From positions 1 through 61,862 of IMG/VR virus record IMGVR_UViG_3300037502_000606: a stretch of DNA of 61,862 nt, one strand, 5' to 3'. The position numbers were made by a program, and so were the translations under genes. The stretch is from a virus (lineage: Duplodnaviria > Caudoviricetes). Under the pieces are notes generated by a model. It made no database searches, was not told where the DNA came from, and saw only the letters and a program-made list of their open reading frames with translations. Shown one piece after another: positions 1 to 61,862 of the stretch (its first letter is position 1; each line of letters opens with the position of its first letter).

Positions 1-89
1 TAAACCTGTGCCGCGATGAGTAGCCATTGAAAAACGTTGCCGTCTCTCTTTGGGTCATACACCGGGGCCTTGATCACTTATAACCGCCG
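1..89. repeat. Terminal overlap block A, identical to 61605-61693
   Basis: Direct sequence identity from taaacctgtgccg to cttataaccgccg at both ends; indicates a circular or circularly permuted assembly. Confidence 0.97.
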
Positions 90-535
90 TAACTTCCAAA
101 CATGTTTAAGTATTCGATGGCATTTTGCAAAATTTTTGGATCATCTTTGAACATGCCTAACGCCCTATTGCACTGCTTACACAAAACACCGCGAAACTCA
201 TCTGTATGGTGATTGTGATCAATTGCGCTATCAATCAACTCTATTTCTATTTTGCAAATTGCACAACACTCTTCTTGTCTTTCGTAAGCGTCTATTAACT
301 GTTCTGGTGTGATTCCTCTGCGGGCGCAACGCTTTGCTAATGTCCAACTATCTTTATCCCTGTACTCACGAACCCGGTCTGGATTTTGTTCTGTCCAGCG
401 TCTGTGTTCTTTGTATAGGCATGAATTGCACCTGCTTTTAAATAAATGTGTTTGGCTACCACCACGACTACGATAAGCCGTAAGTGGCTTTTCCTCGCCG
501 CACATAGTACAAACTTTAACTTCGGTATCCACCAC
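74..535 (-). CDS. Endonuclease VII-type (His-Me finger) free-standing homing endonuclease
   Basis: N-terminal CxxC...CxxC, then CAIC...IDHNH...RGVLCKQCNRALG, the EndoVII signature; absent from the allele at the other window end. Confidence 0.9.
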   Translation of the reverse strand: MVDTEVKVCTMCGEEKPLTAYRSRGGSQTHLFKSRCNSCLYKEHRRWTEQNPDRVREYRDKDSWTLAKRCARRGITPEQLIDAYERQEECCAICKIEIELIDSAIDHNHHTDEFRGVLCKQCNRALGMFKDDPKILQNAIEYLNMFGSYGGYK

Positions 536-576
536 CAGCAGCCTTATATTTCTTAGCTAAGAGTTGGCTTTTCCTC
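90..576 (-). mobile_element. Endonuclease insertion cassette with a recoded 3' end of its target gene
   Basis: 487 bp here replace 42 bp (61694-61735) in the empty allele. Confidence 0.85.
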
Positions 577-803
577 GCTGACCATTGGCCCGCAGCAGTC
601 CCTTGAGTCGCGGAACCTTTAATTTGCTCAAAGAGCTGCTTACGCATTGAAGGCTTCGTATAAACGCCTGCTTCATTGACGCGAGACTTAACCTTCCCAC
701 CGTCTTTGAAAGTAGTGAATTTATCGCCATCTTTCCGCCTTCCTATTTTGGCTTCTGGCATCTTTGAAGGGCGAATATCGCCCATTCCGCGAGACGGCCT
801 CAT
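516..803 (-). CDS. Small basic protein, endonuclease target gene
   Basis: K/R/G-rich ORF; FKDGGKV motif; ends GQWSARKSQLLAKKYKAAGGGYRS. Confidence 0.8.
   Translation of the reverse strand: MRPSRGMGDIRPSKMPEAKIGRRKDGDKFTTFKDGGKVKSRVNEAGVYTKPSMRKQLFEQIKGSATQGTAAGQWSARKSQLLAKKYKAAGGGYRS
577..703. repeat. Terminal overlap block B, identical to 61736-61862 (127 bp)
   Basis: Direct sequence identity. Confidence 0.97.
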
Positions 804-1157
804 TTAGCACTTACCACCATAGCGCATCTTGGTCATGCCGCCTTTGGCCATTTTGCCTTTACCGTCGGCAGCGAAAGCAGGAACAGACTTGCCGCCTTTC
901 ATAACCATGGGCATCTTTCCGCCTTCAGCCATCTTGATCATCTTGCCCTTGGTCTTGCCTTTGGTAGCAACACCGTCTTTGCTAGGAGCAGCGGTCTTAA
1001 CTTTTCCCATCTTAGAAGCACCCATACCACCCATTGACATCTTCTTCATCGTAAATTCCTTTCCAACAGATTGAGGGACACCAACTTTTTTGGCAAACGC
1101 TGGATTGTTCGCCACGGCCTGCATAAATCTTTCCTGCTTTTTTGTCTTGGCAGGCAT
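804..1157 (-). CDS. Small basic K/M/G-rich protein with several xxGG motifs
   Basis: Abuts neighbours in an operon; MSMGG, MAEGG, MAKGG, MRYGG. Confidence 0.8.
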   Translation of the reverse strand: MPAKTKKQERFMQAVANNPAFAKKVGVPQSVGKEFTMKKMSMGGMGASKMGKVKTAAPSKDGVATKGKTKGKMIKMAEGGKMPMVMKGGKSVPAFAADGKGKMAKGGMTKMRYGGKC

Positions 1158-1438
1158 TACACCATCCGACCTTTAGTCTTACCACGAACGGCGCATCCAT
1201 CTGCGCGTTTGGATGCTGAAGAAATTACTCCGCCGCTTGCTTTCTTTTCAGCTTCTTTTGGTGGTTCTTTGGATGCTTGCTTAGGACCGTAGTAATGCTC
1301 CTGGGTAAACCCAAGGCGATCACCAAGCTCGCTGGCTTTTACCGTAGCGGCTTTAATGCCACTCTTGATACCAAGAAAGTCATCTTCGATCTTGGCTTCT
1401 TTGATCTTCTTGGTACGGCTTGAGTCTTTGTTTTCCAT
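1157..1438 (-). CDS. Small basic protein
   Basis: Stop/start overlap; C-terminal KASGGVI...ASKRADGCAVRGKTKGRMV. Confidence 0.8.
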   Translation of the reverse strand: MENKDSSRTKKIKEAKIEDDFLGIKSGIKAATVKASELGDRLGFTQEHYYGPKQASKEPPKEAEKKASGGVISSASKRADGCAVRGKTKGRMV

Positions 1439-2318: not shown

Positions 2319-2573
2319 TTAGCACTTCCATGCTCGTAAGGATTTGTTAATCCGAGAGTTCGGGTCGTTAGCTGTCTTGGCTGAAGTCAGCTTCTTCTTC
2401 ATGCCGGTCATTCTGGCGCAAAAAGACTTTTTACGAGCACCACCTTCAGGCTGCGGCGCTTTAAGACCAGGCTTGCCAGGATTGGCAGCGTTATAGGAAG
2501 CTCGACCCTTGGCGTTCAAACCGCCCTTGGGATTTTTGCCTTCTTTACGCTGCCAGGCTGGTGTCTTTGCCAT
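2319..2573 (-). CDS. Small basic phage protein (DUF6321-like)
   Basis: GKNPKGGLNAKGRAS...RKKSFCARM...SLRAWKC pattern. Confidence 0.7.
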   Translation of the reverse strand: MAKTPAWQRKEGKNPKGGLNAKGRASYNAANPGKPGLKAPQPEGGARKKSFCARMTGMKKKLTSAKTANDPNSRINKSLRAWKC

Positions 2574-2575
2574 GA

Positions 2576-3157
2576 TTAGCTACACAGAATGGTTGCTGAA
2601 CCGACCTGCGTCAGAGCTACCGTCGCATAGTCGTTGAGCGTATATGTCGCCACAATCCCCTCGCCAGGCACCCACACGTTAAACGCATTTGCTCCAGATC
2701 CAGCCGGGCTAAGGACGTTCAATACTTTGCGGGAATCACTGTACCGGGTAATGATCACTGACCCAGCCGTGGTTGCGCCGGTGTAGTACAAGCCACGAAT
2801 ACGACACTTAGGCAGAGCCAGGCCAGACAGGCCGATACTGACATTGTTAGCCGAAGTTGCGCTTGGAGTAATAGACGTTACTGAAGCAAAATAGTTGGTG
2901 CTAGTTACGGTATTTGAATCTACGCCCGTAATCACCTCAGTAAGTTGCTGCCCATCCATGCCTATACCAACCACCGTGAAATCGGTAATAGCGTCATCTC
3001 CATCTGAAGTCACTGTGACTTTTGCCCCAGCCCCGTTAAATGGAAGGTTCTCACTGGTCAATGTGAGCGCGGCAGCGACAGCAATAGGCCCAGCCGTTCT
3101 TAAAGCGGTTGCGCTATTGTTCCACGTAGCCGACCAAACATCAGACTGCATGCCCAT
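2576..3157 (-). CDS. Putative structural (beta-rich) protein
   Basis: T/S/A/V/G-rich; downstream of the capsid module. Confidence 0.65.
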   Translation of the reverse strand: MGMQSDVWSATWNNSATALRTAGPIAVAAALTLTSENLPFNGAGAKVTVTSDGDDAITDFTVVGIGMDGQQLTEVITGVDSNTVTSTNYFASVTSITPSATSANNVSIGLSGLALPKCRIRGLYYTGATTAGSVIITRYSDSRKVLNVLSPAGSGANAFNVWVPGEGIVATYTLNDYATVALTQVGSATILCS

Positions 3158-5623: not shown

Positions 5624-6244
5624 TTAAGCCGTGTAAGCAGTACCGGTCAGCGCCGTGTATTGCGGGTCGTTGATCTTGACGATCACTTCGGGGTAAAGGA
5701 CAACGCCACTTACCACCTTAGAGGTGTCAGGAACAACAGCAATCACACGGAACGGAAGCGTGGTAGCAGCACCAGCGCCGTTAGCCGGAAGCACAACAGA
5801 AGATCCAGAATCGCCAGTGGTGGCGGAACCGGTACCATAAACAGTCGCTACGTTGGCACCAACGATGGTCTGGTTCGCACCAGTAACCACGGCAGTGTCA
5901 CCAGAAGTGGTGATAGCAACTTTGAACGCTGCGAAGGGATCAACCACTACGTAGGCAATCGCTTCAGTAACAGCGGTGCCGGGATAGTATTGAGCCTGGA
6001 CAGTTTGTCCCTGAGAGTTCTTGTACTGGCAACCCATGAAGACACCAACGATGGTGCCGGAAGTGGTAGCGCCAGACAACTCGATAGAACCGCCCGCAAC
6101 AACTTTAACCGTGTCACCGAAGTAGATGGCCGTGTTGTAGGTGCCAGCAATACGAATTTGCTGCGTTGCACCTGCATACGGTAGACCATCGATCCGGTTA
6201 ACAGGCCTAAAGCCGTAGGGCTTACTAATAGTAGGATAAGCCAT
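5624..6244 (-). CDS. Capsid cement/decoration protein
   Basis: PYGFRPV...IYFGD...VGVFMGC; immediately upstream of the capsid gene. Confidence 0.65.
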   Translation of the reverse strand: MAYPTISKPYGFRPVNRIDGLPYAGATQQIRIAGTYNTAIYFGDTVKVVAGGSIELSGATTSGTIVGVFMGCQYKNSQGQTVQAQYYPGTAVTEAIAYVVVDPFAAFKVAITTSGDTAVVTGANQTIVGANVATVYGTGSATTGDSGSSVVLPANGAGAATTLPFRVIAVVPDTSKVVSGVVLYPEVIVKINDPQYTALTGTAYTA

Positions 6245-6261
6245 TTGTTAACTCCTAAGAT

Positions 6262-6714
6262 TTAAGTTCCTTTACCAAAGCTACTCGACGATTTCCGCTC
6301 TTTAAAGATTGGCATCCTCGGATCGCTTTGCCGCATAAGGGTGTTGTCAACAGCCTCCGTCTGAGCTTGGGTCTGGCCACGAAAGTGATTAGCTCTCTGC
6401 TCAACCAGCTCTTCAGGGGTTTTGCATAACAACAACCCGCCGATCTCAATGTTGTCCTTAAAACGACTATTGGGATCTAGTAACAGTTTGAATTTCGGTT
6501 GTTCCTCGATACGAACCGGCTCCCATCCCTCTCGCATTTTGGACGAAAGGTTACGTGGGTCAGCCTGATTCAACATGGAAACACGAATCCAACGATACGC
6601 ATACCCAGCTTCTTTGTCTGGCTCGGGGAGTAACTCCGCTGGCACCCACTGTTTTGGACGCTCGGTTGTTGCTCGGGTTGCTACATCGCGTGAAGCTCTA
6701 ATTTGTTCAGCCAT
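6262..6714 (-). CDS. Conserved head-module protein
   Basis: YRWIR...REGWEPV...IGGLLLCK; start revised to MAEQIR. Confidence 0.7.
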   Translation of the reverse strand: MAEQIRASRDVATRATTERPKQWVPAELLPEPDKEAGYAYRWIRVSMLNQADPRNLSSKMREGWEPVRIEEQPKFKLLLDPNSRFKDNIEIGGLLLCKTPEELVEQRANHFRGQTQAQTEAVDNTLMRQSDPRMPIFKERKSSSSFGKGT

Positions 6715-22799: not shown

Positions 22800-23084
22800 C
22801 TAAGACAAGACCTTGAATTTCTCGTTCTGGAACAACCAGCCGATGGTCTCGTTTAGTACAGATAACTCTGTCTTTTTCGTTATGTTCCACATGGCTTTTC
22901 GTCCGTGTATGCCGTTATGGCTACCCTGGTGACAGTCTTTGCACAATGGGATGCAGGTAAAGTGTAGCCCCTGTTCTATGTGATGTGCATCGCTTGGACC
23001 GCTTGCGCCGCACACCCCGCATTTCATAGATTTAATTTCAAAAAGATATTTTTTTTCTAATTTATTTAAATTTTTACTGTTCAA
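22800..23084 (-). CDS. Zn-binding HNH-like nuclease (Ref/DUF968-like)
   Basis: CGVCG...DAHH...CIPLCKDCH. Confidence 0.75.
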   Translation of the reverse strand: MNSKNLNKLEKKYLFEIKSMKCGVCGASGPSDAHHIEQGLHFTCIPLCKDCHQGSHNGIHGRKAMWNITKKTELSVLNETIGWLFQNEKFKVLS

Positions 23085-23670
23085 TTTGTTTTAGCTTTCC
23101 TTGCTTTAACCACCTTGAAGCAGAAGATTTGCTTATATTTAAAACTTTTGCCGCCTCAGACAAGATCATTTTTGTTCCATCAATCTCAACCCAAACGTTT
23201 GTTGATCTGTTTGCAGCTTGTTCCTTGTGGGTTGCCCATCTTACATTTCCAGGAAAATACCCTTTTAAATTATCAATTCTGTCGATGGTGTGATGTTCGC
23301 TTGGGGGGTGGCCAATGTACCTTGCAAAGTTTTCATAAACTTTCCACTCTTCAAAAACCGTTATCCCTCTTCCGCCGTATTTTTTGTAGTGCGAAGAGCT
23401 TGGTTTTGTGGTTCTTTCAACCATTGATTTCCAAGATTTCCAAAGTTTTGTATTTGTTTCTCCGTGTCTTAAGTTTAGCGTAGACATCCTGATTGAACAT
23501 GTTTTTCTTCTTGAACAGCCACAGCTGGTGCTATTTTTTCTCCTTAAATTTCCTGCTAAAACTTTTGTTTCGTTTCCACAATCGCATTTACACAAATAGA
23601 TTGTTTGCCCATCTTTTGCTTTCCCATAATTAGACAGGACGGTGAGTTTTCCAAAAATTAAACCAATCAT
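23074..23670 (-). CDS. HNH homing endonuclease
   Basis: FGKLTV...CKCDCG...SCGC; YGGRGI; TIDRIDN.KGY.PGNVRWAT...QAANR; AT-rich DNA. Confidence 0.88.
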   Translation of the reverse strand: MIGLIFGKLTVLSNYGKAKDGQTIYLCKCDCGNETKVLAGNLRRKNSTSCGCSRRKTCSIRMSTLNLRHGETNTKLWKSWKSMVERTTKPSSSHYKKYGGRGITVFEEWKVYENFARYIGHPPSEHHTIDRIDNLKGYFPGNVRWATHKEQAANRSTNVWVEIDGTKMILSEAAKVLNISKSSASRWLKQGKLKQIEQ

Positions 23671-31333: not shown

Positions 31334-31783
31334 ATGCTCTACCTTGGAATTGACCCTGGATTCACCGGTGCATGGGGCCTTGTAAATCATCGAGGAGACT
31401 TCGTTGCCTGCGGGGATATGAAGCATAACGACCGCTGGATAGACACCAATCAAGTGTCCCGAGACATCATGCAGGCCAGGCAATTAGACGATGTGATGGT
31501 GGTGGTGGAGGCCGTACACGCTATGCCCAAGCAGGGCGTATCAAGCTCCTTCAAGTTTGGGATGGCCTATGGCGCTGCCATTGCAATCGCAACGCGGTTC
31601 TCTCAGTTTGAACTTGTTCCGCCCAGGGTCTGGAAGAAGGATATGGGACTGACGGCAGACAAGAAGGACAGCCTGGTCATGGCCCGAGAGCTATGGCCAG
31701 ACTCCCCTCTTGAAAGAGTGAAGGATAACGGCAGGGCAGAAGCCCTTCTCCTAGCTGAGTGGCTACGGAGAGCTTATCTCTGA
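31334..31783 (+). CDS. RuvC-like Holliday junction resolvase
   Basis: LGIDPGFTGA, VVEAV, SSFKFG, P.VWKK, GRAEALLLA. Confidence 0.88.
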   Translation: MLYLGIDPGFTGAWGLVNHRGDFVACGDMKHNDRWIDTNQVSRDIMQARQLDDVMVVVEAVHAMPKQGVSSSFKFGMAYGAAIAIATRFSQFELVPPRVWKKDMGLTADKKDSLVMARELWPDSPLERVKDNGRAEALLLAEWLRRAYL

Positions 31784-34700
31784 GCTGCCGCTACCCTGTC
31801 GTTGAACCGCTTCATCTGGACAGCGATCTGATTCTCTACCGCCTTGACCTGCTCCTTCGGGGCATCCTTCTCTAACAGAGCATCCCGGCGCTTACGGAGG
31901 GCCTGGAGGTTACGCTCGACCTGATTGGCGTAAGAGAAGAGCCTGGCGTCTGGATTGTCCATCAGGTACTCCTGGACGTTCTCCCGGTTCTCGCGTCTAC
32001 CTTTGATCTCCCGCTCATGTTTATTGAGCTGCATGATGTTGTTGTAGAAGCGGTTACGCTCGGCAGCAAGACCCTGGGTGTCGCCAACAAAGCGTCCAAT
32101 CAGGGGCACCTTATAGATCGGCAGATCTTCGCCTGTAACTTGGCTACGAAGAGTCTGTTCAACCTTCATAACCTCACGGCCAACACCACCAGTAAACTGA
32201 CCTATCAGGTAGTCAATCTGATCTGGGGTGGGACTCACTACTCCAGGGGTGTACTTTGTTCCACCAGAGGCATAGTTCAGGAACTCAGACAGGCCCTTGC
32301 CAACAATGCTGGCCGTCTCTCTAGCCCGTGTATACCCAGGGGTAGGATCAAGCCCAGAGATGTCTTCCTTGGCAATCGGCTTACCAGTCCAATCTACGTT
32401 CTCCGTAAGAGCAATAACAGGATCTAGGGCGGTAGGGGTTATCGTTTGAGCCGACCACCCGGCATTGCCAAGCGGGTTGAACATATCCAACGTTGCCGAG
32501 AGGATGCTGCTAATCCGCTTGGGCGTATCTTTGAACCCAGAAATCGCCCACTCTGTAGCAATTCGGCTTGTGTTAGGGATAACGTTGTATCCCAAAGGCA
32601 TTGGAATGGTAATGTACTTTGATCCGCCAATCGGCAGAACAATGTTCCGCTCTTTCACAAACTCCGGTGGCTCATCTTCATCAAAACCTGCCGCTGCAAG
32701 CGCCATGGCTTGAAGTATTCCAAGGATAATACCGCCCCCAATAATTTTTATTCCAGCCGGGCCTTTGAGCGTGTCATACATCCTGACTGTACCCTGGACG
32801 GAGGCATTGAAGAACGCATACAGAGCACCCATCTGCCGGCCAATCTGTCCCTTGCGGTTAAAGTTCACCGTAAGGTTCTTGGCCACTGACGCTGCCTGCT
32901 GCTTGGTCATGCCTTGGTCGAGCGCTACCTTATACGCAGAGAGACGAACCGCGTTCTCCATCGTCTGGTTATAGTCAGACAACCAGTCAAAGAGTGGGGT
33001 GGCTGCTTTACGAGCTATCTCTGCGGGAACTTTGAGTGTTCCGCCAGCCGTAAAGATTTTCCCAAGTTTGCTTTTCGTCCAAGATGATGGGTCGAGGATG
33101 CGTTGCAATGCCTCTGCCCGCTCTTGACTACGGCTAAACATATCTCTAAAGCCGGTCTGCGCCCCTTCTTTCTGGAACTCTTCCCAGAGCTGCGCCCAGG
33201 GACGATTCGTAGAAGGCTGACCCTTACGCTTAGCTCTTTCTTCTCCGTAGATTCCGCGAAGAGCGGGCATAACACCAGCAAGAACTTGCTTTTGCTTCCC
33301 GGCAATTGGCGTAGTGCTGAGCTGTAGCATTGCACCTTGAACGTCGCGCAAGAAGTTGATGCCGCCGAAAATTGGGTTGTACTGCGTGTTGATCTTGGCG
33401 AAATATTGAGTAAACGCCTGAGAAATACTCAGAGCTTTACTGAGCTGATCAACGTCCAGATTCTTCAACGACTCCACCATCCTCACTGCCCGAGGATCTT
33501 TGGAGTTAAAAATTAGAAACTTCTCTTCTCCGTTGATGCGGATAGGCAAAGACAGTGCGCTTGTGATCAACCGCTCGTTTGGAACCTCTTTGACTGTATT
33601 TGTTGCCGGATCAACATCCCTGCGGGTCGGCGTGTTGGCAATGTTTTGCGCGTCAGACGGGTTGATCCCCATCGAGATAAGATCATTGATTAGCTGCTGC
33701 GGATCTTTCTTGATGTAAGGATCGTATGGCAACCAGAACCCAGGATTGGGATTAGTCACCGCCAGAGCATAGACAGCCTTGGCCACACGGAGCTTCTCTG
33801 CCCGGATGATGGCCCGCTCCCGCTGCATAGCAACGTTAGCCAAGATGTCTACAACCTTACGTCCAGATCCTACAGATGCCCTGCTGAACGGTCCTTTGAT
33901 AGCAAAACCAGACCCAACGCCGACACCAACGTTCTTGACATCGTAGTCAGCTTCTTCCCGGTTTAGCGGAACATAGTGCTTGTAAGCCTTGTTCCAATTG
34001 TCAATTACCTCTTGCTTCTCTTGGCCGCTGGAGACAATAAGATCTTGCGTCCCCTTGACGATGTCATCAACCATCTTGGCAACGTCATCAAAGGCTTTCT
34101 TCTGCTGCGGGGTAAGAGCTGCTAGATACTTCTTAGCGTCTGCCGTGAGGATTCCTGATCCCCCGTCAGGCATGGTCGGATCACGTTTAGCGTTTTGGAT
34201 ATTGCGCTCTTCAGCATGGCGATTCTGTAGGTACTCTTCTACCTGATCCATGGTTAGCTTGCGATCACGCAGCGCCTTCATCAATGGCTCAAGCTCATCC
34301 TTCAAGAAGTCTTCTGTCTGTTTGGCCGTCCTGCCGTGATACAACTCCTCTTGGAGATACGGGTTCCAGGAATCAATCAGGCTCTTACGTTGCGCCGTAA
34401 TCTTTTGAACAACCCGCTTTGTATCAATGTTCTTGTCTTGGAGAACGTAGAGAATGTCATCGATCTTCGACTCATCAGGAGATCCCCAGGTCGCCTTGGG
34501 CATGGGCTGGCCAAAGATATTCTTGCTGACATTTTGGGGAACCATCGCCCGAACACCCGTCTCTGTAACAAAGTCTACGAGAGACTTGTTATCCATGCGC
34601 TCTGGCTGATCTTTCATCAGGCGATCAAAGACTTTGTGTACGCCAAGACGATTGTCGAATCCAAAGACCTTCTTCATGGACTCTATGAGCTTACGCACCG

Positions 34701-37700
34701 CAGACTTAAACCGCTCCCACTGAGTACCTAGCTTGGCAGCAAAGAGCTTCTCAGCATTGATCGCCCAATATTCTGATGGACTGAGGTACTGATAGAAGTC
34801 ATAAGACGGCATGGATTGGACAGCCGCAGCAAAGGACGCATCACTAGGAGTATCTAAGAACTCGATGACATTCTTAAAAAACGCCTGTGACTGAGCATCT
34901 TTGTTCTTTTTGACCGCCGCATCAAAGGCGCTTCTCCAGGAATCCAAGACAACCTTCTTCTGTTCAGCGGTCATCATCTGCTCAAGCGAGTGCATGATTT
35001 CGTGACGGACAGTAGAAGGATCTTCAATCCCCGACGTTCCATTCCATAGAGTCACCACCCTAGCAAACGGCTGGAAGTTTCCTGAAGACTTGTCTTCCTT
35101 TGGTTTCCTGACAGACAGACGCAGACCGTTGAGAACCCACGGCGTCTTAACATACGCATCACGGATAGTCGCTAACACCTCTGGGCTGAGATCACCCTTC
35201 TCATAGGCATCAAGAGCACGACGCAGGAAGTTCTCAGGACTACGGGAAGGTTCAGCGGTGGCATCAATGTCTTCTTTGAGCTGCTTGGCAAGCTCATCTG
35301 TAAGAGCAATGTTGCGCTGCAATTCAATGCTTGGACCCTGGGCTACGTATTCTTTGACTAGCTGGCTGCGCTTAGCACGGAGACGGGTGTACTCAACAAT
35401 CTGCTCGTCCCTTGATGCAATACGTCCAGCATCAACTTCAACCTCTGTTACAGGAGTCGTAGCATCAATGTTGTAGAGGAAGTTCTGCTTGGAACCATAC
35501 TCAACACCACGGGCCAAGATCATGTTACCGATCTGGAGAACTGCATCAGCCTTGACCACTGGAAGAGTAGTGGCCCTATCAAAGAAGTAGGCATGTCTTG
35601 TCGGATCAAAACCTAACTGGACATACCGTGGATCTTTAATAGCCTGCTGCGCCATTTGATAGGCTTCGGCTGGAGATACGTTGACGTACTCCCCTTCCAT
35701 GGTCTGAAGGGCATCTTTGGCCTGGCCAGCGGCAATCTCTAGGGCTTTGGCCTGATTGCTCAGAGCAAACGTAACATTCTTTACCATCGCTACGCTGCGG
35801 TATCCAATGGCTAAACCAGGCTTTGCCGACGTTGATTTAGGCCGGCCCTCATGTATGGATACAACGAACGTCTTGTGATTGTTCCAGGCTGGTATGTCTA
35901 AGCGCAGACCAACCTTGGTTCCATCGGGGATAGATACGTTCGCCTTGGGCTTCTTGTCTGAGGACAGGGCATTGACTACCTGCTCATCGGTCGCAGGGAC
36001 AAGCGGCTCTGTATAGACGGGGATAGGACGATACTTGTTGACCGCTGCGTCGTATTCCTCTTTGGTAAGCAGGCCAGCCTGGAGCTGTTCAGCCATAGCA
36101 GCAAGCTCAGGTGAACGCCCAGGAGGTAGCTTCTTCTTAGCCTTGGGGAGTTCTTCGTTTATCTGGTTAAGAGTCTTGGCGTCATCACCAAAGAGATCTG
36201 TCTGGGGGCTGGCTACGTCTATGGTAATAGTTTCTTTAGCCTCCACAGATCTTGGGCTTACCTTGGTTCTTCCAAGCTCTCTCAAATCTTTATCTAGCTC
36301 GACCAACGGACTAGAAAGCAACTTATCTGAGGTGCTAACAAGAGCTTCAAGCGCAGATAAAGTGTTTGTCGGAAGACCAAGTATGCGACGAGCAATATCT
36401 ACCAGCTTGCCAAAAGCTGTAAATTGTTTACTTACTTGGATGTCTTTTAAGTAATTTTGAACATCACCCTCAGACATCCCCATTGCCATCAATTCATCTA
36501 TGTTTGATAGCGTGTACGTAACTTTAAAAATGAATTTTTCATCTTTAACCGGATCGTACTTGTTTGCTTTTAATTCTTCTCTAAACTTGGTTCTCAGTTC
36601 TTGACGAAGACTTTCAAGTTCTTTTATTCGTGGATCTGATTTTTTTAGCCCCGCTGTCTGGATAACTGTTGCCGCATGAATCAGCTCATGCAAAATAGTT
36701 TGATACTCCAGCCCATTGCCGCGAGGCGCCTTTTTTCCTTGCACCAAACCATTCAGGCGATAGTCAAACTTGAATCCATCTATGTTCAGTCTGTAAGTTA
36801 CCTTGCCCTTATATCCTTGGACACGACGGCTGTCGTTAAGGATGATTGGGCCATTCATCTCTATACCGCGAGAAGAAAAATCCTTGATTCTGTTTTTAAT
36901 CTTGGATGCTATTTCTTTCGCTAGTTCGTTTGGCGCGTTATCAACTGCCCACTTAGCCAACCCAGGTACATCTAGTTTTTTTATCTCGTCATAAATCTGT
37001 TCCGCAGATTTTTCTATCTCCGCTTTAAATTCTTTTGGAGCTGGTGGCTCGGGTGGCTTGACCTCTGTAGGTTCACCAAATAAATCTGGCTCTTGTTCTA
37101 TTTCTTTGAGAGACTCAAATACCTGATCTAGCGTAGGCCGAGGAGGAACCTGCCCAAACATATCTGGCTCTTGCGATACCTGGCTTGCATCCATGGCCGC
37201 ATCGGCAAGACGAGATAGTCCTTCAGCAATGCGCTTGGTAGAACGCCCACTGTCAGCAATGAACTCCATGATCTTCTGGGCATATGGGTCTAATCCAATA
37301 GCGCCCTGCTTCACAAAGGTGGGCATTTCCTTGATAGGAACGCCCTGGCGTACAGCAGATACAAGGTTCTCAATACCCTCTACAACCTTGGAGCGAATGT
37401 CGTAATCGCCCGCCCCTGATAGTTTGACCATCTTTGGAGCAACCTTAGCCAGACTGTTGAGATACATCTTTGCGTCTGGGTTTGTGGTTGCTGCGTACAG
37501 ATCTATAAGCGCATCATTCTCATAGGCGCCGTAGAAGATGGCGTTTAACAGTCGAGCACTAGCCTCCGGGGTTGGAAGCCCGGTGGACTTGTTAATTAAC
37601 TCTGACTGCTCACTCTCCGGCATGGCCTGGATGAACTGTCTCAGAGTAGAGAGCTGCGGGACTCCCTCTTCGGTGAATTGCAAACCAGTAAGGTCGAACT

Positions 37701-39846
37701 TACCAGCAAGCCTATTGAGGTCGTTCTTCGCCCTGTCTACAGGTTCAAGTCCAGCGATACCAGATACGTTTGATAAGTCGCCAATGTTTTCCGGTACCAG
37801 CCCTTTCGGCATGATCCGAACGAGGACTGGGTTTGGTATGGCAGCGATGACCTCTTGACTGACACCATGAGAAGGATCGTTGATTAGTTCATTACGATAC
37901 TTATCTGTCGTCTTGCGGTTGTATGCCTCTTGTATTCCAGCGATACGACCATTGCCAGCGACGGCCCTGATACCAGGGACACTTAAGTCTCCGTAAAATG
38001 GATTGACTGTTCCATCTGCAAGGTTAGACGTAAACACTTCTGTTGCCGGTACGACTGCATAGCGAACTGGGAATCTCTGCCCATTAGACGCCGTGGCCAT
38101 ATCAGTACGTCCAAGAAACTCACTTGGGATGTTTATGTCACTGATGATTACAGGAGCACCTTCAGCCAAAACCTTGGACGGGCCAACGAGTGAGTAGTCT
38201 GGTGCTGATGCAATCTTCTGCATCTGAGCAACCGACCCTTTCCCAGACCTATCGCGGTTCTGGAATATCGTCTGAGCATTTGGTACCTGCCCCTGAAAAT
38301 AGTTATCCAGAGCTTGCTGTTCTTCCGGCGTGAACTCCGTCGGCTTTATCGTAGGTGGAACACCAGGCGTCGTGCCTGTTGGGATGGATGGAGGAGTCAA
38401 TCCAGAAGTAGGAGGAACACCGGTCGGTGGTGTCGGCGTAGTACCAACAGGAACCATGGGCGGCGTAGGCGTCGTTGAAACCGGCGTTGTTGGTGGAGTG
38501 GGAGTTGCAGGAGGAGTGGGCGCCGTTGGCGGAGCAAAGGTGGCTGGATTTACACCAACGAGCATTGCCGCCGTTGAATTGGCGCCATCAAAGTCATCGA
38601 ATATACCGGCATCAGAAGACTGCCCAGAGTTCCCATCTACGTATATGACCTGGAACCTCCCATCTGGTGTTGGAGTTATCCTCACCTCGACGTTGTTTCC
38701 AGCGTCTGCATATCCACCAAGAAGGTCTGGCCCTGGAGAAAGAGGTACGACTGGAGCGGCCCCAGGAGCAGCGCCCGTGGGAGTTACAGGAGTAACTGCG
38801 GCTGGTGGTGCAGCAGGCGTCGGTGCAGCGGCAGCTGGCGGAGTTGCGGTAGGAGGGATAGGAGGAGCGGCAGGACCAGCTTCACCAGCAGCTCCAATAC
38901 CAGCACCCAGAGCACCACCTGCAATAGCCTCTAATGCAGCCTGACCAGCTACGCCTCGAAATGTCGGTACATCAAGCCCTTCTCTTTGAGCAGCAATGTT
39001 AGCCGCCAATTGTTCCTGTCCAGCCTGAATAGCCTCTGGAACAGCCTCTGTCACGCCGGTTTCTACCGCCTGACGAACAGCGCCCTTTTGAGCAGCCTGT
39101 TGAGCCGCTTGCTTTGCCGCGATCTTTCCAAGAATGTATTTCTCAACACCAGTCCTACCAGCAACAGCACCAAGAGCCGTGCCGGCAAGAATCATGTCAA
39201 GGTTTTCACCGCCGTACTCTTGAGCAGCTATAGCCCGCTCTTCAGCTTCCTTCTCTGATGCGCCGGCCTTCTTAAGTTCTTCTTTGACGGTGTCATATAT
39301 CGTGCCTTTGACTACGCCAGCGCCCGTCAATCCAGCGGTGGTAACTAAGCCTGGCAAACCAGCAACGGCGCCCAACAGAATAGGAACGGACGATCCAGCA
39401 GCTTGAGCAAGGAAGTCAACCGGAGCCGTGGCAAATGCAGATAGCGCGGCTTTAAGTTGTTCACCAAGTCCCTTGTCTTCCGCATCCTTCATGATGGCGG
39501 CAATCGCCTGAGAGTCCTGTTTGGACTGTGCAGACGCTAGTTCAGCAAGGTACTTCTCTACGCCACGAATGTTTTGAGCAGCAGCATTGTTGGCACCAAA
39601 TGCTTCCGTAATAGCGCGGGTCGTTGATACAGTCCCTTCAGCAATTTTAAGAGGAACGTCAAGAACTTCCCTGGTAAAAGACTCTGGCTTGGCCGCTTCA
39701 GCAAACTGTTTCGGCGTTACTCCAAAGACGGACTCAAGGAATCCTTTTTCTTCTGGCGGCTTAATCCCAATGCCAGTTAGATACTTGTCTGGATCAAATT
39801 CTGTCGAACTAATCCCCCGCAGGTATGCGTCTGGATCGAAAGCCAT
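31774..39846 (-). CDS. Large polyvalent ejected protein (ddrB-like ParB, two HExxH zincin-like domains, LPD38-like C-terminus)
   Basis: FDPDxYL x2 at N-terminus, hydrophobic G/A region, P/T linker, QNRDRS...AGNGR, HELIH, HEIMH, NLTVNFNRKG...LYAFFNAS. Confidence 0.8.
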   Translation of the reverse strand: MAFDPDAYLRGISSTEFDPDKYLTGIGIKPPEEKGFLESVFGVTPKQFAEAAKPESFTREVLDVPLKIAEGTVSTTRAITEAFGANNAAAQNIRGVEKYLAELASAQSKQDSQAIAAIMKDAEDKGLGEQLKAALSAFATAPVDFLAQAAGSSVPILLGAVAGLPGLVTTAGLTGAGVVKGTIYDTVKEELKKAGASEKEAEERAIAAQEYGGENLDMILAGTALGAVAGRTGVEKYILGKIAAKQAAQQAAQKGAVRQAVETGVTEAVPEAIQAGQEQLAANIAAQREGLDVPTFRGVAGQAALEAIAGGALGAGIGAAGEAGPAAPPIPPTATPPAAAAPTPAAPPAAVTPVTPTGAAPGAAPVVPLSPGPDLLGGYADAGNNVEVRITPTPDGRFQVIYVDGNSGQSSDAGIFDDFDGANSTAAMLVGVNPATFAPPTAPTPPATPTPPTTPVSTTPTPPMVPVGTTPTPPTGVPPTSGLTPPSIPTGTTPGVPPTIKPTEFTPEEQQALDNYFQGQVPNAQTIFQNRDRSGKGSVAQMQKIASAPDYSLVGPSKVLAEGAPVIISDINIPSEFLGRTDMATASNGQRFPVRYAVVPATEVFTSNLADGTVNPFYGDLSVPGIRAVAGNGRIAGIQEAYNRKTTDKYRNELINDPSHGVSQEVIAAIPNPVLVRIMPKGLVPENIGDLSNVSGIAGLEPVDRAKNDLNRLAGKFDLTGLQFTEEGVPQLSTLRQFIQAMPESEQSELINKSTGLPTPEASARLLNAIFYGAYENDALIDLYAATTNPDAKMYLNSLAKVAPKMVKLSGAGDYDIRSKVVEGIENLVSAVRQGVPIKEMPTFVKQGAIGLDPYAQKIMEFIADSGRSTKRIAEGLSRLADAAMDASQVSQEPDMFGQVPPRPTLDQVFESLKEIEQEPDLFGEPTEVKPPEPPAPKEFKAEIEKSAEQIYDEIKKLDVPGLAKWAVDNAPNELAKEIASKIKNRIKDFSSRGIEMNGPIILNDSRRVQGYKGKVTYRLNIDGFKFDYRLNGLVQGKKAPRGNGLEYQTILHELIHAATVIQTAGLKKSDPRIKELESLRQELRTKFREELKANKYDPVKDEKFIFKVTYTLSNIDELMAMGMSEGDVQNYLKDIQVSKQFTAFGKLVDIARRILGLPTNTLSALEALVSTSDKLLSSPLVELDKDLRELGRTKVSPRSVEAKETITIDVASPQTDLFGDDAKTLNQINEELPKAKKKLPPGRSPELAAMAEQLQAGLLTKEEYDAAVNKYRPIPVYTEPLVPATDEQVVNALSSDKKPKANVSIPDGTKVGLRLDIPAWNNHKTFVVSIHEGRPKSTSAKPGLAIGYRSVAMVKNVTFALSNQAKALEIAAGQAKDALQTMEGEYVNVSPAEAYQMAQQAIKDPRYVQLGFDPTRHAYFFDRATTLPVVKADAVLQIGNMILARGVEYGSKQNFLYNIDATTPVTEVEVDAGRIASRDEQIVEYTRLRAKRSQLVKEYVAQGPSIELQRNIALTDELAKQLKEDIDATAEPSRSPENFLRRALDAYEKGDLSPEVLATIRDAYVKTPWVLNGLRLSVRKPKEDKSSGNFQPFARVVTLWNGTSGIEDPSTVRHEIMHSLEQMMTAEQKKVVLDSWRSAFDAAVKKNKDAQSQAFFKNVIEFLDTPSDASFAAAVQSMPSYDFYQYLSPSEYWAINAEKLFAAKLGTQWERFKSAVRKLIESMKKVFGFDNRLGVHKVFDRLMKDQPERMDNKSLVDFVTETGVRAMVPQNVSKNIFGQPMPKATWGSPDESKIDDILYVLQDKNIDTKRVVQKITAQRKSLIDSWNPYLQEELYHGRTAKQTEDFLKDELEPLMKALRDRKLTMDQVEEYLQNRHAEERNIQNAKRDPTMPDGGSGILTADAKKYLAALTPQQKKAFDDVAKMVDDIVKGTQDLIVSSGQEKQEVIDNWNKAYKHYVPLNREEADYDVKNVGVGVGSGFAIKGPFSRASVGSGRKVVDILANVAMQRERAIIRAEKLRVAKAVYALAVTNPNPGFWLPYDPYIKKDPQQLINDLISMGINPSDAQNIANTPTRRDVDPATNTVKEVPNERLITSALSLPIRINGEEKFLIFNSKDPRAVRMVESLKNLDVDQLSKALSISQAFTQYFAKINTQYNPIFGGINFLRDVQGAMLQLSTTPIAGKQKQVLAGVMPALRGIYGEERAKRKGQPSTNRPWAQLWEEFQKEGAQTGFRDMFSRSQERAEALQRILDPSSWTKSKLGKIFTAGGTLKVPAEIARKAATPLFDWLSDYNQTMENAVRLSAYKVALDQGMTKQQAASVAKNLTVNFNRKGQIGRQMGALYAFFNASVQGTVRMYDTLKGPAGIKIIGGGIILGILQAMALAAAGFDEDEPPEFVKERNIVLPIGGSKYITIPMPLGYNVIPNTSRIATEWAISGFKDTPKRISSILSATLDMFNPLGNAGWSAQTITPTALDPVIALTENVDWTGKPIAKEDISGLDPTPGYTRARETASIVGKGLSEFLNYASGGTKYTPGVVSPTPDQIDYLIGQFTGGVGREVMKVEQTLRSQVTGEDLPIYKVPLIGRFVGDTQGLAAERNRFYNNIMQLNKHEREIKGRRENRENVQEYLMDNPDARLFSYANQVERNLQALRKRRDALLEKDAPKEQVKAVENQIAVQMKRFNDRVAAAQR

Positions 39847-61069: not shown

Positions 61070-61342
61070 TTACTTTCCTAGCTTTTTCAATGTCTGGGCT
61101 AAACGTGCTCGTTGACCCATCTTTCCAGGCTTTTTGGCAGCGGCAGCAAGTTTCCCAGCAGGACTCTTTTCACCTTTTTTGACGCCAAGAGACGAGCGAA
61201 GGGCGCCAGGTTTCTTGATGGCATCTTTGATCCAACCACCAGACTTGGCTATGACCGTTTTGCCCTTGGCCTTCTTGATCTGGTCAATCGGGTCTTTGCT
61301 CATCTGGTCTTCTTTGGCTGGACTAGGAGTAACCGTTTTCAT
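61070..61342 (-). CDS. Small basic protein
   Basis: AKSGGWIKDAIKKPGALR...GQRARLAQTL. Confidence 0.75.
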   Translation of the reverse strand: MKTVTPSPAKEDQMSKDPIDQIKKAKGKTVIAKSGGWIKDAIKKPGALRSSLGVKKGEKSPAGKLAAAAKKPGKMGQRARLAQTLKKLGK

Positions 61343-61578
61343 CTGAACCTCGCTGTCTTTGCTGCAATTGACTTTGGTTGTTTAACGAATTGCTTTCCAC
61401 CAGCTTTACCAGCTCTTTTCGCTCTAGTCGTCGCTGCATACTCAGCTGGAGATAGTGCGTTGATCGCCTTCTCTGGGAGATAGCGTTCGCCAGTAACGGA
61501 AGACGGTTTGCCACTTTTAGTTCTCCACTTCTGGGTTCCCCAGTCTTTTAAGCTCTGCTGTGGCTTCTTTAGCGGCAT
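61339..61578 (-). CDS. Small basic protein (DUF5872-like)
   Basis: QQSLKDW..QKWRTKSGK...GERYLP...KQFVKQP. Confidence 0.75.
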   Translation of the reverse strand: MPLKKPQQSLKDWGTQKWRTKSGKPSSVTGERYLPEKAINALSPAEYAATTRAKRAGKAGGKQFVKQPKSIAAKTARFR

Positions 61579-61681
61579 TTGACTCTACCTGTTTCCGTTG
61601 TCTGTAAACCTGTGCCGCGATGAGTAGCCATTGAAAAACGTTGCCGTCTCTCTTTGGGTCATACACCGGGGCCTTGATCAC
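61517..61681 (-). CDS. 54-aa hypothetical protein (not in ORF track)
   Basis: MIKAPVYDPKRDGNVFQWLLIAAQVYRQRKQVESNAAKEATAELKRLGNPEVEN; GTG start overlaps the upstream TGA. Confidence 0.5.
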   Translation of the reverse strand: MIKAPVYDPKRDGNVFQWLLIAAQVYRQRKQVESNAAKEATAELKRLGNPEVEN

Positions 61682-61862
61682 TTATAACCGCCGCCTTTGG
61701 CTTTGTACTTCTTGGCTAAGAGTTGGGCTTTTCTGGCTGACCATTGGCCCGCAGCAGTCCCTTGAGTCGCGGAACCTTTAATTTGCTCAAAGAGCTGCTT
61801 ACGCATTGAAGGCTTCGTATAAACGCCTGCTTCATTGACGCGAGACTTAACCTTCCCACCGT
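61678..61862 (-). CDS. 3' part of the 516-803 gene, endonuclease-free allele
   Basis: Reads ...GQWSARKAQLLAKKYKAKGGGYK-stop. Confidence 0.85.
   Translation of the reverse strand, partial: GGKVKSRVNEAGVYTKPSMRKQLFEQIKGSATQGTAAGQWSARKAQLLAKKYKAKGGGYK

Follow-up and report, generated by a model that had tools for sequence, protein, structure and literature searches.

A phage gene with two endings: an Endonuclease VII-type homing cassette that very probably spreads without an intron and brings a foreign gene end with it

How can one phage record hold two different endings of the same gene, one followed by an endonuclease and one not? The question is raised by the IMG/VR record IMGVR_UViG_3300037502_000606, from a virus of the Caudoviricetes, which was analyzed over its whole length of 61,862 nucleotides (nt; hereafter, the window). 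The record encodes a tailed phage with a large terminase, a portal and a helicase, carries nearly all of its genes on the minus strand, and is classed as "linear" with a CheckV completeness of 98%. When the two ends of the window were compared with each other, positions 1-89 equaled 61605-61693 and positions 577-703 equaled 61736-61862, in both cases without a mismatch. Between these identical flanks lie 487 nt at the window start (90-576) versus 42 nt at the window end (61694-61735), so that the occupied allele exceeds the empty one by a net 445 nt. The favored answer to the question is that the 487 nt are the cassette of a free-standing homing endonuclease, which very probably moves by intron-less homing within a family of tailed phages, uncultured and from freshwater and subsurface settings.

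The cassette falls at the 3' end of a small minus-strand gene, referred to here as the host gene. Read on the minus strand, the copy at the window start runs ...WSARKSQLLAKKYKAAGGGYRS to a stop and is followed by an open reading frame (ORF) of 153 amino acids (aa) at 74-535, and the copy at the window end runs ...WSARKAQLLAKKYKAKGGGYK to a stop. In its occupied form, the host gene (516-803, minus strand, 95 aa, phrog_17747) closes with a substitute 3' tail at 516-576, ending ...SARKSQLLAKKYKAAGGGYRS before the stop; in its empty form (61678-61862, minus strand, 94 aa), whose 5' part lies off the contig end, it ends ...SARKAQLLAKKYKAKGGGYK before the stop. The two tails differ at 16 of 54 positions and the flanks are identical, such that the 42 nt displaced by the cassette (61694-61735, minus strand), a predicted recognition and cleavage region, are all that the empty allele has of its own. 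The GTG start of the nuclease ORF sits within the new tail of the host gene, in another frame, with an overlap of 20 nt (516-535). At the opposite end of the cassette, the last 16 nt of the original tail, including its TGA, remain at 74-89 and now form the final five codons and stop of the nuclease. This remnant still overlaps the GTG start of the next gene (54 aa; minus strand, 61517-61681, where the GTG overlaps the host-gene TGA), and the same junction stands behind the nuclease in the occupied allele (window 1-77), unchanged. Because 42 nt were replaced and a 16-nt remnant was kept, the event is a substitution by a foreign tail plus nuclease and not a plain insertion. An earlier reading of the window, made from sequence only, had reported these coordinates, the codon strings and peptides of both endings and a 445-bp net insertion, all of which proved correct on the minus strand.

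The nuclease ORF does not lie in a self-splicing intron or an intein: the host ORF needs no splicing to be complete, the nuclease is encoded apart from it in a different frame, and an Rfam scan of positions 1-1500 returned no intron family, with just a chance IRES match at E ≤ 1. No sigma-70-like promoter or gene-strand terminator was found in the same 1500 positions. The GC content of the cassette is 41.7% versus 50.6% for the genome, and only 2.2% of equal-sized windows are as low. The host gene itself has no Pfam family at E ≤ 0.1, and its PHROG match, phrog_17747, is annotated as function unknown; its homologues at E ≤ 1e-3 number 7564. A programmed frameshift that would fuse host gene and nuclease was considered and dropped, as one class of relatives starts the nuclease at an ATG past the host stop, with no overlap.

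The two endings are a population polymorphism and not two sites within one molecule. A 39.6-kb contig from another sample (L084), a relative about 5% diverged, runs from window position 1049 down to 1 and then directly on through 61693-60130. As this contig crosses the join, position 1 follows 61604 and the genome closes on itself; positions 61605-61862 are therefore an assembly wrap-around, a second pass over window 1-703 via the empty branch, for which no strand applies. The genome is circular or permuted, and the assembly passed its own start via the other branch of the polymorphism. The sequence-only reading had taken both alleles to be present in the window: both sequences are real, but they are not two places in one molecule, since L084 crosses the join and contigs of a single sequencing run (X1) carry both branches. 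The polymorphism left the contig ends unequal, and the record was classed as linear although the genome closes; more generally, a mobile gene that is polymorphic where the assembly wraps may keep end-repeat checks from recognizing a circular genome.

In run X1, the occupied branch is held by a 540-nt contig over 60-599 with a depth of 8.8 and no mismatches, and the empty branch by a joint from 89 to 550 with the empty allele's own 15 letters between, at a depth of 32.6. The flank contigs 577-959 and 1050-2000 have depths of 44.9 and 42.9 and no variant letters, and the depth over 1-89 is 34.5. The two branch depths sum to about the flank depth, which puts the invaded form at roughly one fifth of the X1 population. 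Run X2, from the same study as X1, holds the occupied form on a single continuous 1174-nt contig, and run X4, from a different study, holds pieces of the cassette with 0-1 mismatches. In run X3, a 4042-nt contig matches both flanks, and 446 unlike letters replace the cassette at window 85-556; these may be a different insert or another nuclease variant. The two alleles coexist, and the site shows presence and absence of the element between otherwise near-identical genomes.

Comparison with other genomes provides the evidence for mobility. Between the window and L084, the cassette is identical at 487 of 487 positions, and the segments around it are less alike: 98.7% over 577-803, 97.8% over 1-89, 91.5% over 804-1500, and 95-96% further out. 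The same pattern recurs among the 67 occupied loci, which yield 50 cassette pairs at least 97% identical; in 21 of these (a hand count from the listing), a flank falls below 96%, with flank identities down to 77-83%. For example, L094 and L095 share 99.4% of the cassette versus 82.9 and 87.6% of the flanks, L097 and L099 share 100% versus 79.7% of one flank, and L114 and L117 share 100% versus 95.0 and 77.2%. The remaining 29 pairs show near-identity in cassette and flanks alike, and each is probably one phage that was sampled twice. Between genomes, the element matches more closely than the DNA beside it, the pattern left by horizontal spread with co-conversion, and by these comparisons the cassette evidently spreads horizontally. 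The proposal of the sequence-only reading that the nuclease is free-standing, intron-less and mobile is thus upheld by the additive depths of both alleles in X1, the identity with L084, the 21 of 50 pairs and the Rfam result.

The nuclease at 74-535 (minus strand, GTG start) matches the Pfam family Endonuclease_7 (PF02945) over residues 73-144 with an E-value of 2.6e-19 and 69.4 bits against a cut-off of 23.6, and phrog_2633, "endonuclease VII," with an E-value of 2.5e-31. Its N-terminal part holds a CxxC...CxxC region that resembles a zinc ribbon, and the catalytic domain (73-144) is C-terminal. The catalytic and zinc motif CxxC..DHxH..R..CxxCN is intact at 167-265 (minus strand) and is kept in 70 of 70 ORFs at the same site in relatives. 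The available text of one article gives the motif of the DHHRN/F-CphI family as CX2-4C ... DH(D)H ... R ... CX2C-N (PMC6083498), and by motif the ORF is assigned to the Endonuclease VII (Endo VII)-motif homing endonucleases typified by F-CphI. The nearest solved relative is the catalytic end of the restriction enzyme Hpy99I (E 2.8e-8). The match to T4 Endo VII is weak (E 0.033) and covers only residues 82-131 against chain residues 14-70; likeness to the T4 gp49-type resolvase over its full length, including the C-terminal dimerization part, was not found, as the catalytic core alone aligns. The best matches to the nuclease in cultured phages are only about 38% identical.

The substitute tail and the nuclease are linked across relatives. 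Loci were collected in two ways: the host protein led to 576 relatives in viral contigs, the best 80 of which were retained, and the nuclease led to 70 loci. By local tblastn, 72 loci have both genes, 74 have only the host gene and 3 have only the nuclease. In 66 loci, a member of the nuclease family follows a host-gene homologue immediately on its 3' side. This position is invariable for nucleases that share at least 65% identity with the one in the window, and they either overlap the host gene by 5-20 nt or begin at an ATG just past its stop with an N-terminal extension. When 75 unique empty tails were compared with 49 unique occupied tails by total-variation distance (L107 and L128 were left out for want of an anchor), the largest differences fell on an Ala codon that becomes Ser in occupied tails (GCN to AGT; 0.88, 0.86 and 0.74 at its three positions) and on a change from TAC to TAT (0.74). 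Six more wobble or first positions up to the stop differ by 0.4-0.6, and the 15 codons upstream by at most 0.36. The peak of association falls inside 61694-61735, and in empty alleles the first two letters of the Ala codon, G and C, hardly vary (0.99 invariant). Among the best 80 of the 576 host-selected loci, an Endo VII ORF stands at the site in 4 and none in 76, and Ser occurs in 3, one of which (L038) is empty.

Two tail-pattern scans that were blind to the nuclease led to the same association, with counts taken among the matches listed. Ser-type tails gave 120 matches, 115 of them informative, and 75 of the 115 are followed by an ORF with the Endo VII motif; Ala-type tails gave 121 matches, 114 of them informative, and only one is followed by such an ORF. 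That single case (L315, oriented 5800-6339) has two tandem host-gene paralogues, the second of which precedes a distant Endo VII ORF. The TAT codon is present in 70 of the 75 Ser-type tails with the nuclease versus 22 of the 40 without. Across these loci, tail type and nuclease are evidently linked. The sequence-only reading had suggested a survey of relatives for such a linkage, which is strong (75 of 115 versus 1 of 114); it had also named common occurrence of the tail without the endonuclease as evidence against itself, and with 40 of 115 Ser-type tails lacking the nuclease, this is in part what was found.

A further question is where the substitute tail came from. An empty relative, L004, has exactly the same sequence over the empty tail and the 26 nt that follow it, and among the nine nearest loci by host protein (L004-L012, 76-88% identical), eight carry a tail ending in Lys before the stop. 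The ninth, L007, carries a different Endo VII nuclease, 32% identical, and the ORF of that nuclease ends in a remnant ...GGGYK and stop. The occupied tail belongs to the type ...GGGYR[DS] and stop, known from distant lineages. The ten tails nearest to it all come from occupied loci, with host proteins 44-100% identical, and nine of the ten tails nearest to the empty tail come from empty loci. As the nearest relatives are of the Lys-ending type and the neighbors of the occupied tail are all occupied, the empty allele is ancestral in this lineage. The ...GGGYRD-stop tail is then evidently a foreign homologue, brought with the nuclease into a ...GGGYK-stop lineage in the manner of a co-converted donor flank. 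The idea that the endonuclease supplies a replacement 3' end for the gene it invades is supported by the strong linkage of tail type to nuclease and by the nearest tails; the accompanying idea that this end had been recoded in place was not borne out, the tail being an imported homologue.

These observations can be assembled into a homing cycle. Translational coupling to the host gene would probably yield the nuclease in small amounts, given the 20-nt overlap and the lack of a promoter-like site. In a co-infected cell, the nuclease would target the conserved terminus of the gene in its uninvaded form, with the cut falling inside the 42-nt segment or next to it. The break would be repaired from the invaded genome, with the gene body as one homology arm and the tail remnant and following gene as the other, and repair would copy in the nuclease together with the foreign tail, a homologous copy of the last 15-19 or so codons of the host gene. 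The invaded allele would escape renewed cutting because the foreign tail differs at the Ala GCN to Ser AGY codon, which is invariant in uninvaded alleles, and at several wobble positions. Over 2 kb to one side and 89 nt to the other, the alleles differ only in 61694-61735, and discrimination between them must use that segment. A cycle of this kind would also be expected to leave resistant empty sites, such as Ser-type tails without the nuclease.

Several points weigh against this homing interpretation. The allele shares rest on Logan contig depth and not on raw reads, and X1, the best-holding run with 0.97 of the sampled words, is probably the source sample of the window and hence not independent. 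Cleavage, its position, immunity and expression are properties that we infer from the DNA. Free-standing T4 endonucleases can cut hundreds of bp from their own gene, according to the available text of one article (PMC2988022), and for this reason a cut within 61694-61735 itself is given only about an even chance. For the tail counts among the matches listed, the Fisher p of 2.5e-29 overstates the evidence, as the loci are phylogenetically related and partly redundant. Among the listed informative Ser-type tails, 40 of 115 are without an Endo VII ORF, and no Endo VII remnant was detected behind any of these 40 (tblastn, E ≤ 0.01), such that the tail can persist or arise without the nuclease. 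Conversely, the Ala codon is kept in 6 of 66 occupied loci (L086, L097-L100 and L152), five of which have Met two codons later. Together, the Ser-type tails without a nuclease and the occupied loci that keep Ala mean that Ser alone cannot be the whole determinant of immunity.

Other explanations of the locus have been weighed against the same data. If the nuclease were an old, vertically inherited resident that is now being lost, the empty allele would be a deletion derivative and there would be no present homing. The separability of tail and nuclease in the 40 of 115 listed Ser-type tails speaks for this view, as does the minority status of the occupied form in X1. However, a deletion would need to recreate the exact 42-nt tail of the Lys-stop type, identical to that of L004 and typical of the lineage; moreover, the cassette is identical at all 487 positions between genomes that diverge by 2-8% nearby, a contrast repeated in the 21 of 50 pairs, and all 70 nuclease motifs are intact, when decayed copies would be expected of a gene being lost. 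Such a loss is accordingly unlikely. An assembly artefact, in which the contig end is a chimera with an unrelated phage sharing a conserved gene and no polymorphism exists in one population, would draw on the conservation of the 3' part of the host gene in DNA even in pelagiphages (81.5% over 80 nt), on the many related strains in X1 (other joints, with depths of 5.6 and 12.9) and on the short flank of the empty allele in the window, just 89 plus 127 nt. Flanks that are 100% identical, X1 flank contigs free of variant letters whose depths (44.9 and 42.9) lie near the sum of the branches (8.8 + 32.6), and the genuine join of 1 to 61604 in L084 make an artefact very unlikely.

The repetition of one end of a linear record at the other could also mean that the virion DNA carries a genuine direct terminal repeat, of which only one copy has been invaded. 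T7-type terminal repeats are copied from one template at packaging and should be identical. Compared with 1050-2000 (42.9), depth shows no doubling over 1-89 (34.5) or over 577-959 (44.9), and L084 passes through the join, so that a terminal repeat is scarcely credible. A domesticated phage enzyme, such as a resolvase of Holliday junctions akin to T4 gp49 or an HNH protein with a role in packaging, would hold its position for a function and not selfishly; the Pfam family is named after the T4 resolvase, and HNH proteins do serve phage packaging. Yet this enzyme is missing from about four fifths of the X1 population and from the site in 76 of the 80 best host-selected loci, its gene lies about 10 kb from the terminase, and its weak match to T4 Endo VII, confined to the catalytic core, is surpassed by that to Hpy99I. 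In addition, a published tree, in the part of the article available, sets homing and restriction enzymes apart from resolvases (PMC6083498), and domestication is on these grounds very improbable indeed.

If the cassette is a free-standing homing endonuclease, it invites comparison with systems already described. In the intron-less homing of the T4 Seg and Mob enzymes, so far as the sources consulted in part describe it, the nuclease gene likewise lies outside any intron or intein, is present or absent between related phages, and spreads with flanking DNA. The available text of one article lists overlaps with the upstream ORF of 20 bp for segC, 11 for segF, 23 for mobA and 24 for mobC, a range of 11-24 bp that includes the 20 nt found here (PMC2988022). 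Unlike these systems, the present one has an Endo VII motif in place of GIY-YIG or HNH_3, belongs to uncultured phages, and visibly replaces coding sequence while carrying a foreign copy of the gene's end. F-CphI of cyanophage S-PM2, a DHHRN enzyme compared here by motif (CX2-4C, DHxH, R, CX2C-N), is also free-standing and phage-encoded with its catalytic domain in the C-terminal half, as far as the accessible text describes it (PMC6083498); however, it targets psbA at an intron insertion site. In the mobE-type insertion in nrdA of phage Aeh1, a free-standing endonuclease gene also stands in a coding region with host function retained, but, as the available passages describe it, the insertion splits nrdA into two polypeptides, whereas here the gene stays whole and the cassette supplies a new end (PMC2988022).

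For the imported gene end, the closest analogue is found in fungal mitochondria. The mORFs described there, in the available part of one report, put a foreign in-phase C-terminal into atp6, atp9, cox2 and nad3 of Allomyces and Glomus; the protein of this C-terminal is similar and its DNA diverged, and the native end matches close relatives (PMC3630166). An endonuclease ORF near the 3' end of a gene, with an in-phase foreign C-terminal, is likewise what the present phage has. In contrast, the mORFs, going by the same available text, are LAGLIDADG or GIY-YIG enzymes of organelles and keep the whole native C-terminal as a duplicate; here, 42 nt are replaced and 16 nt are left, reused as the nuclease's own end. 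The cassette is thus an analogue of the mORFs and not a member. A full-text literature search returned no phage report of a nuclease-borne substitute C-terminal, which is weak evidence of absence given that subscription journals and supplementary files lay outside its scope, and in that search the phrase "carboxy-terminal duplication" led to the fungal paper only. The parts of PMC10448857 that were available contain no passage on recoded or synonymous tails. Among cultured phages, blastn with positions 1-1200 found short conserved pieces only, and the homologue of the host gene in pelagiphage HTVC035P (gp26) is an empty site.

The locus is accordingly a gene drive of a known kind, seen here in a very clean natural form, and not a new mechanism. 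Both states of the site are resolved to single bases, and natural variants of target, resistant and invaded type already number several hundred. The system therefore offers unusually well-resolved natural material for studying how the target of a free-standing endonuclease is specified and how the genome that carries the enzyme is protected. It also documents mosaicism driven by an endonuclease among uncultured freshwater and subsurface phages of an abundant family, and the enzyme is a candidate long-site nuclease from a little-studied catalytic family.

The same junction holds other nucleases as well. At L007:3269-3706, L029:3269-3763 and L075:3284-3733, the site is taken by Endo VII-type nucleases that share just 32-41% identity with the window's enzyme. 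Two of these distant nucleases terminate in remnants of a resident tail (...GGGYK and ...GGGYRG, each before the stop), which suggests independent invasions with the same architecture; the remnants in L007 and L029 are longer than the 16 nt of the window. Furthermore, 6 of the 40 Ser-type tails without Endo VII share one downstream sequence (L220, L159, L162, L164, L243 and L250), and in the four loci examined this sequence encodes, on the opposite strand, a nuclease of unrelated type at the same junction behind the Ser-type tail. In L220, this ORF (2540-3064, minus strand) carries the Pfam domains HNH_3, NUMOD4 and HTH_38, and the site is thus used by at least two nuclease families.

A broader and more tentative reading, to which we would give somewhat less than an even chance, is that the junction is a contested homing hot spot at which metagenomes may display the whole homing cycle. 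At least four deep Endo VII-type lineages (32-41% identical) and the opposite-strand HNH_3/NUMOD4 nuclease would have used the site; the cassettes would come wrapped in the coding ends of both neighbors, namely the upstream 3' tail and, in most relatives, the downstream ATG; and nuclease-free Ser-type tails would be immunized survivors in which a cut was repaired with just the nearby resistant tail. If this reading holds, the junction would be a phage equivalent of the mORFs of fungal mitochondria, as well as a record, kept in nature, of the site in its target, resistant and invaded states.

On the downstream side of the junction, the next gene (the QQSLK family, window 61339-61578) has in most relatives an in-frame ATG (MALK...) within the end of the nuclease ORF. 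This ATG lies in the last 11-17 nt of the nuclease ORF in L085, L094 and about 44 other occupied loci, all as predicted starts, and in empty sites the QQSLK-family gene has a predicted GTG, TTG or ATG start that overlaps the host-gene stop. The cassette therefore seems, from these predicted starts, to supply the start of the downstream QQSLK-family gene as well in most relatives.

Elsewhere in the genome, a 198-aa ORF at window 23074-23670 (minus strand) matches phrog_374, "HNH endonuclease," with an E-value of 1.7e-62 and has a C-terminal helix-turn-helix. It lies in the lowest-GC stretch of the genome, 37-40% versus 50.6%, and is probably a second free-standing homing endonuclease of this phage. 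Beyond the host gene, contig depth spikes at 939-1005 in all four runs, this segment being a short element common to many co-occurring phages. The adjacent small Lys/Gly-rich genes at window 1157-1438 and 1438-2073, both on the minus strand, share the terminal motif KRADG.A.RGKT.GR. Finally, a 2690-aa ORF at window 31774-39846 (minus strand) carries LPD38 and ddrB-like ParB domains of the "large polyvalent protein" kind.

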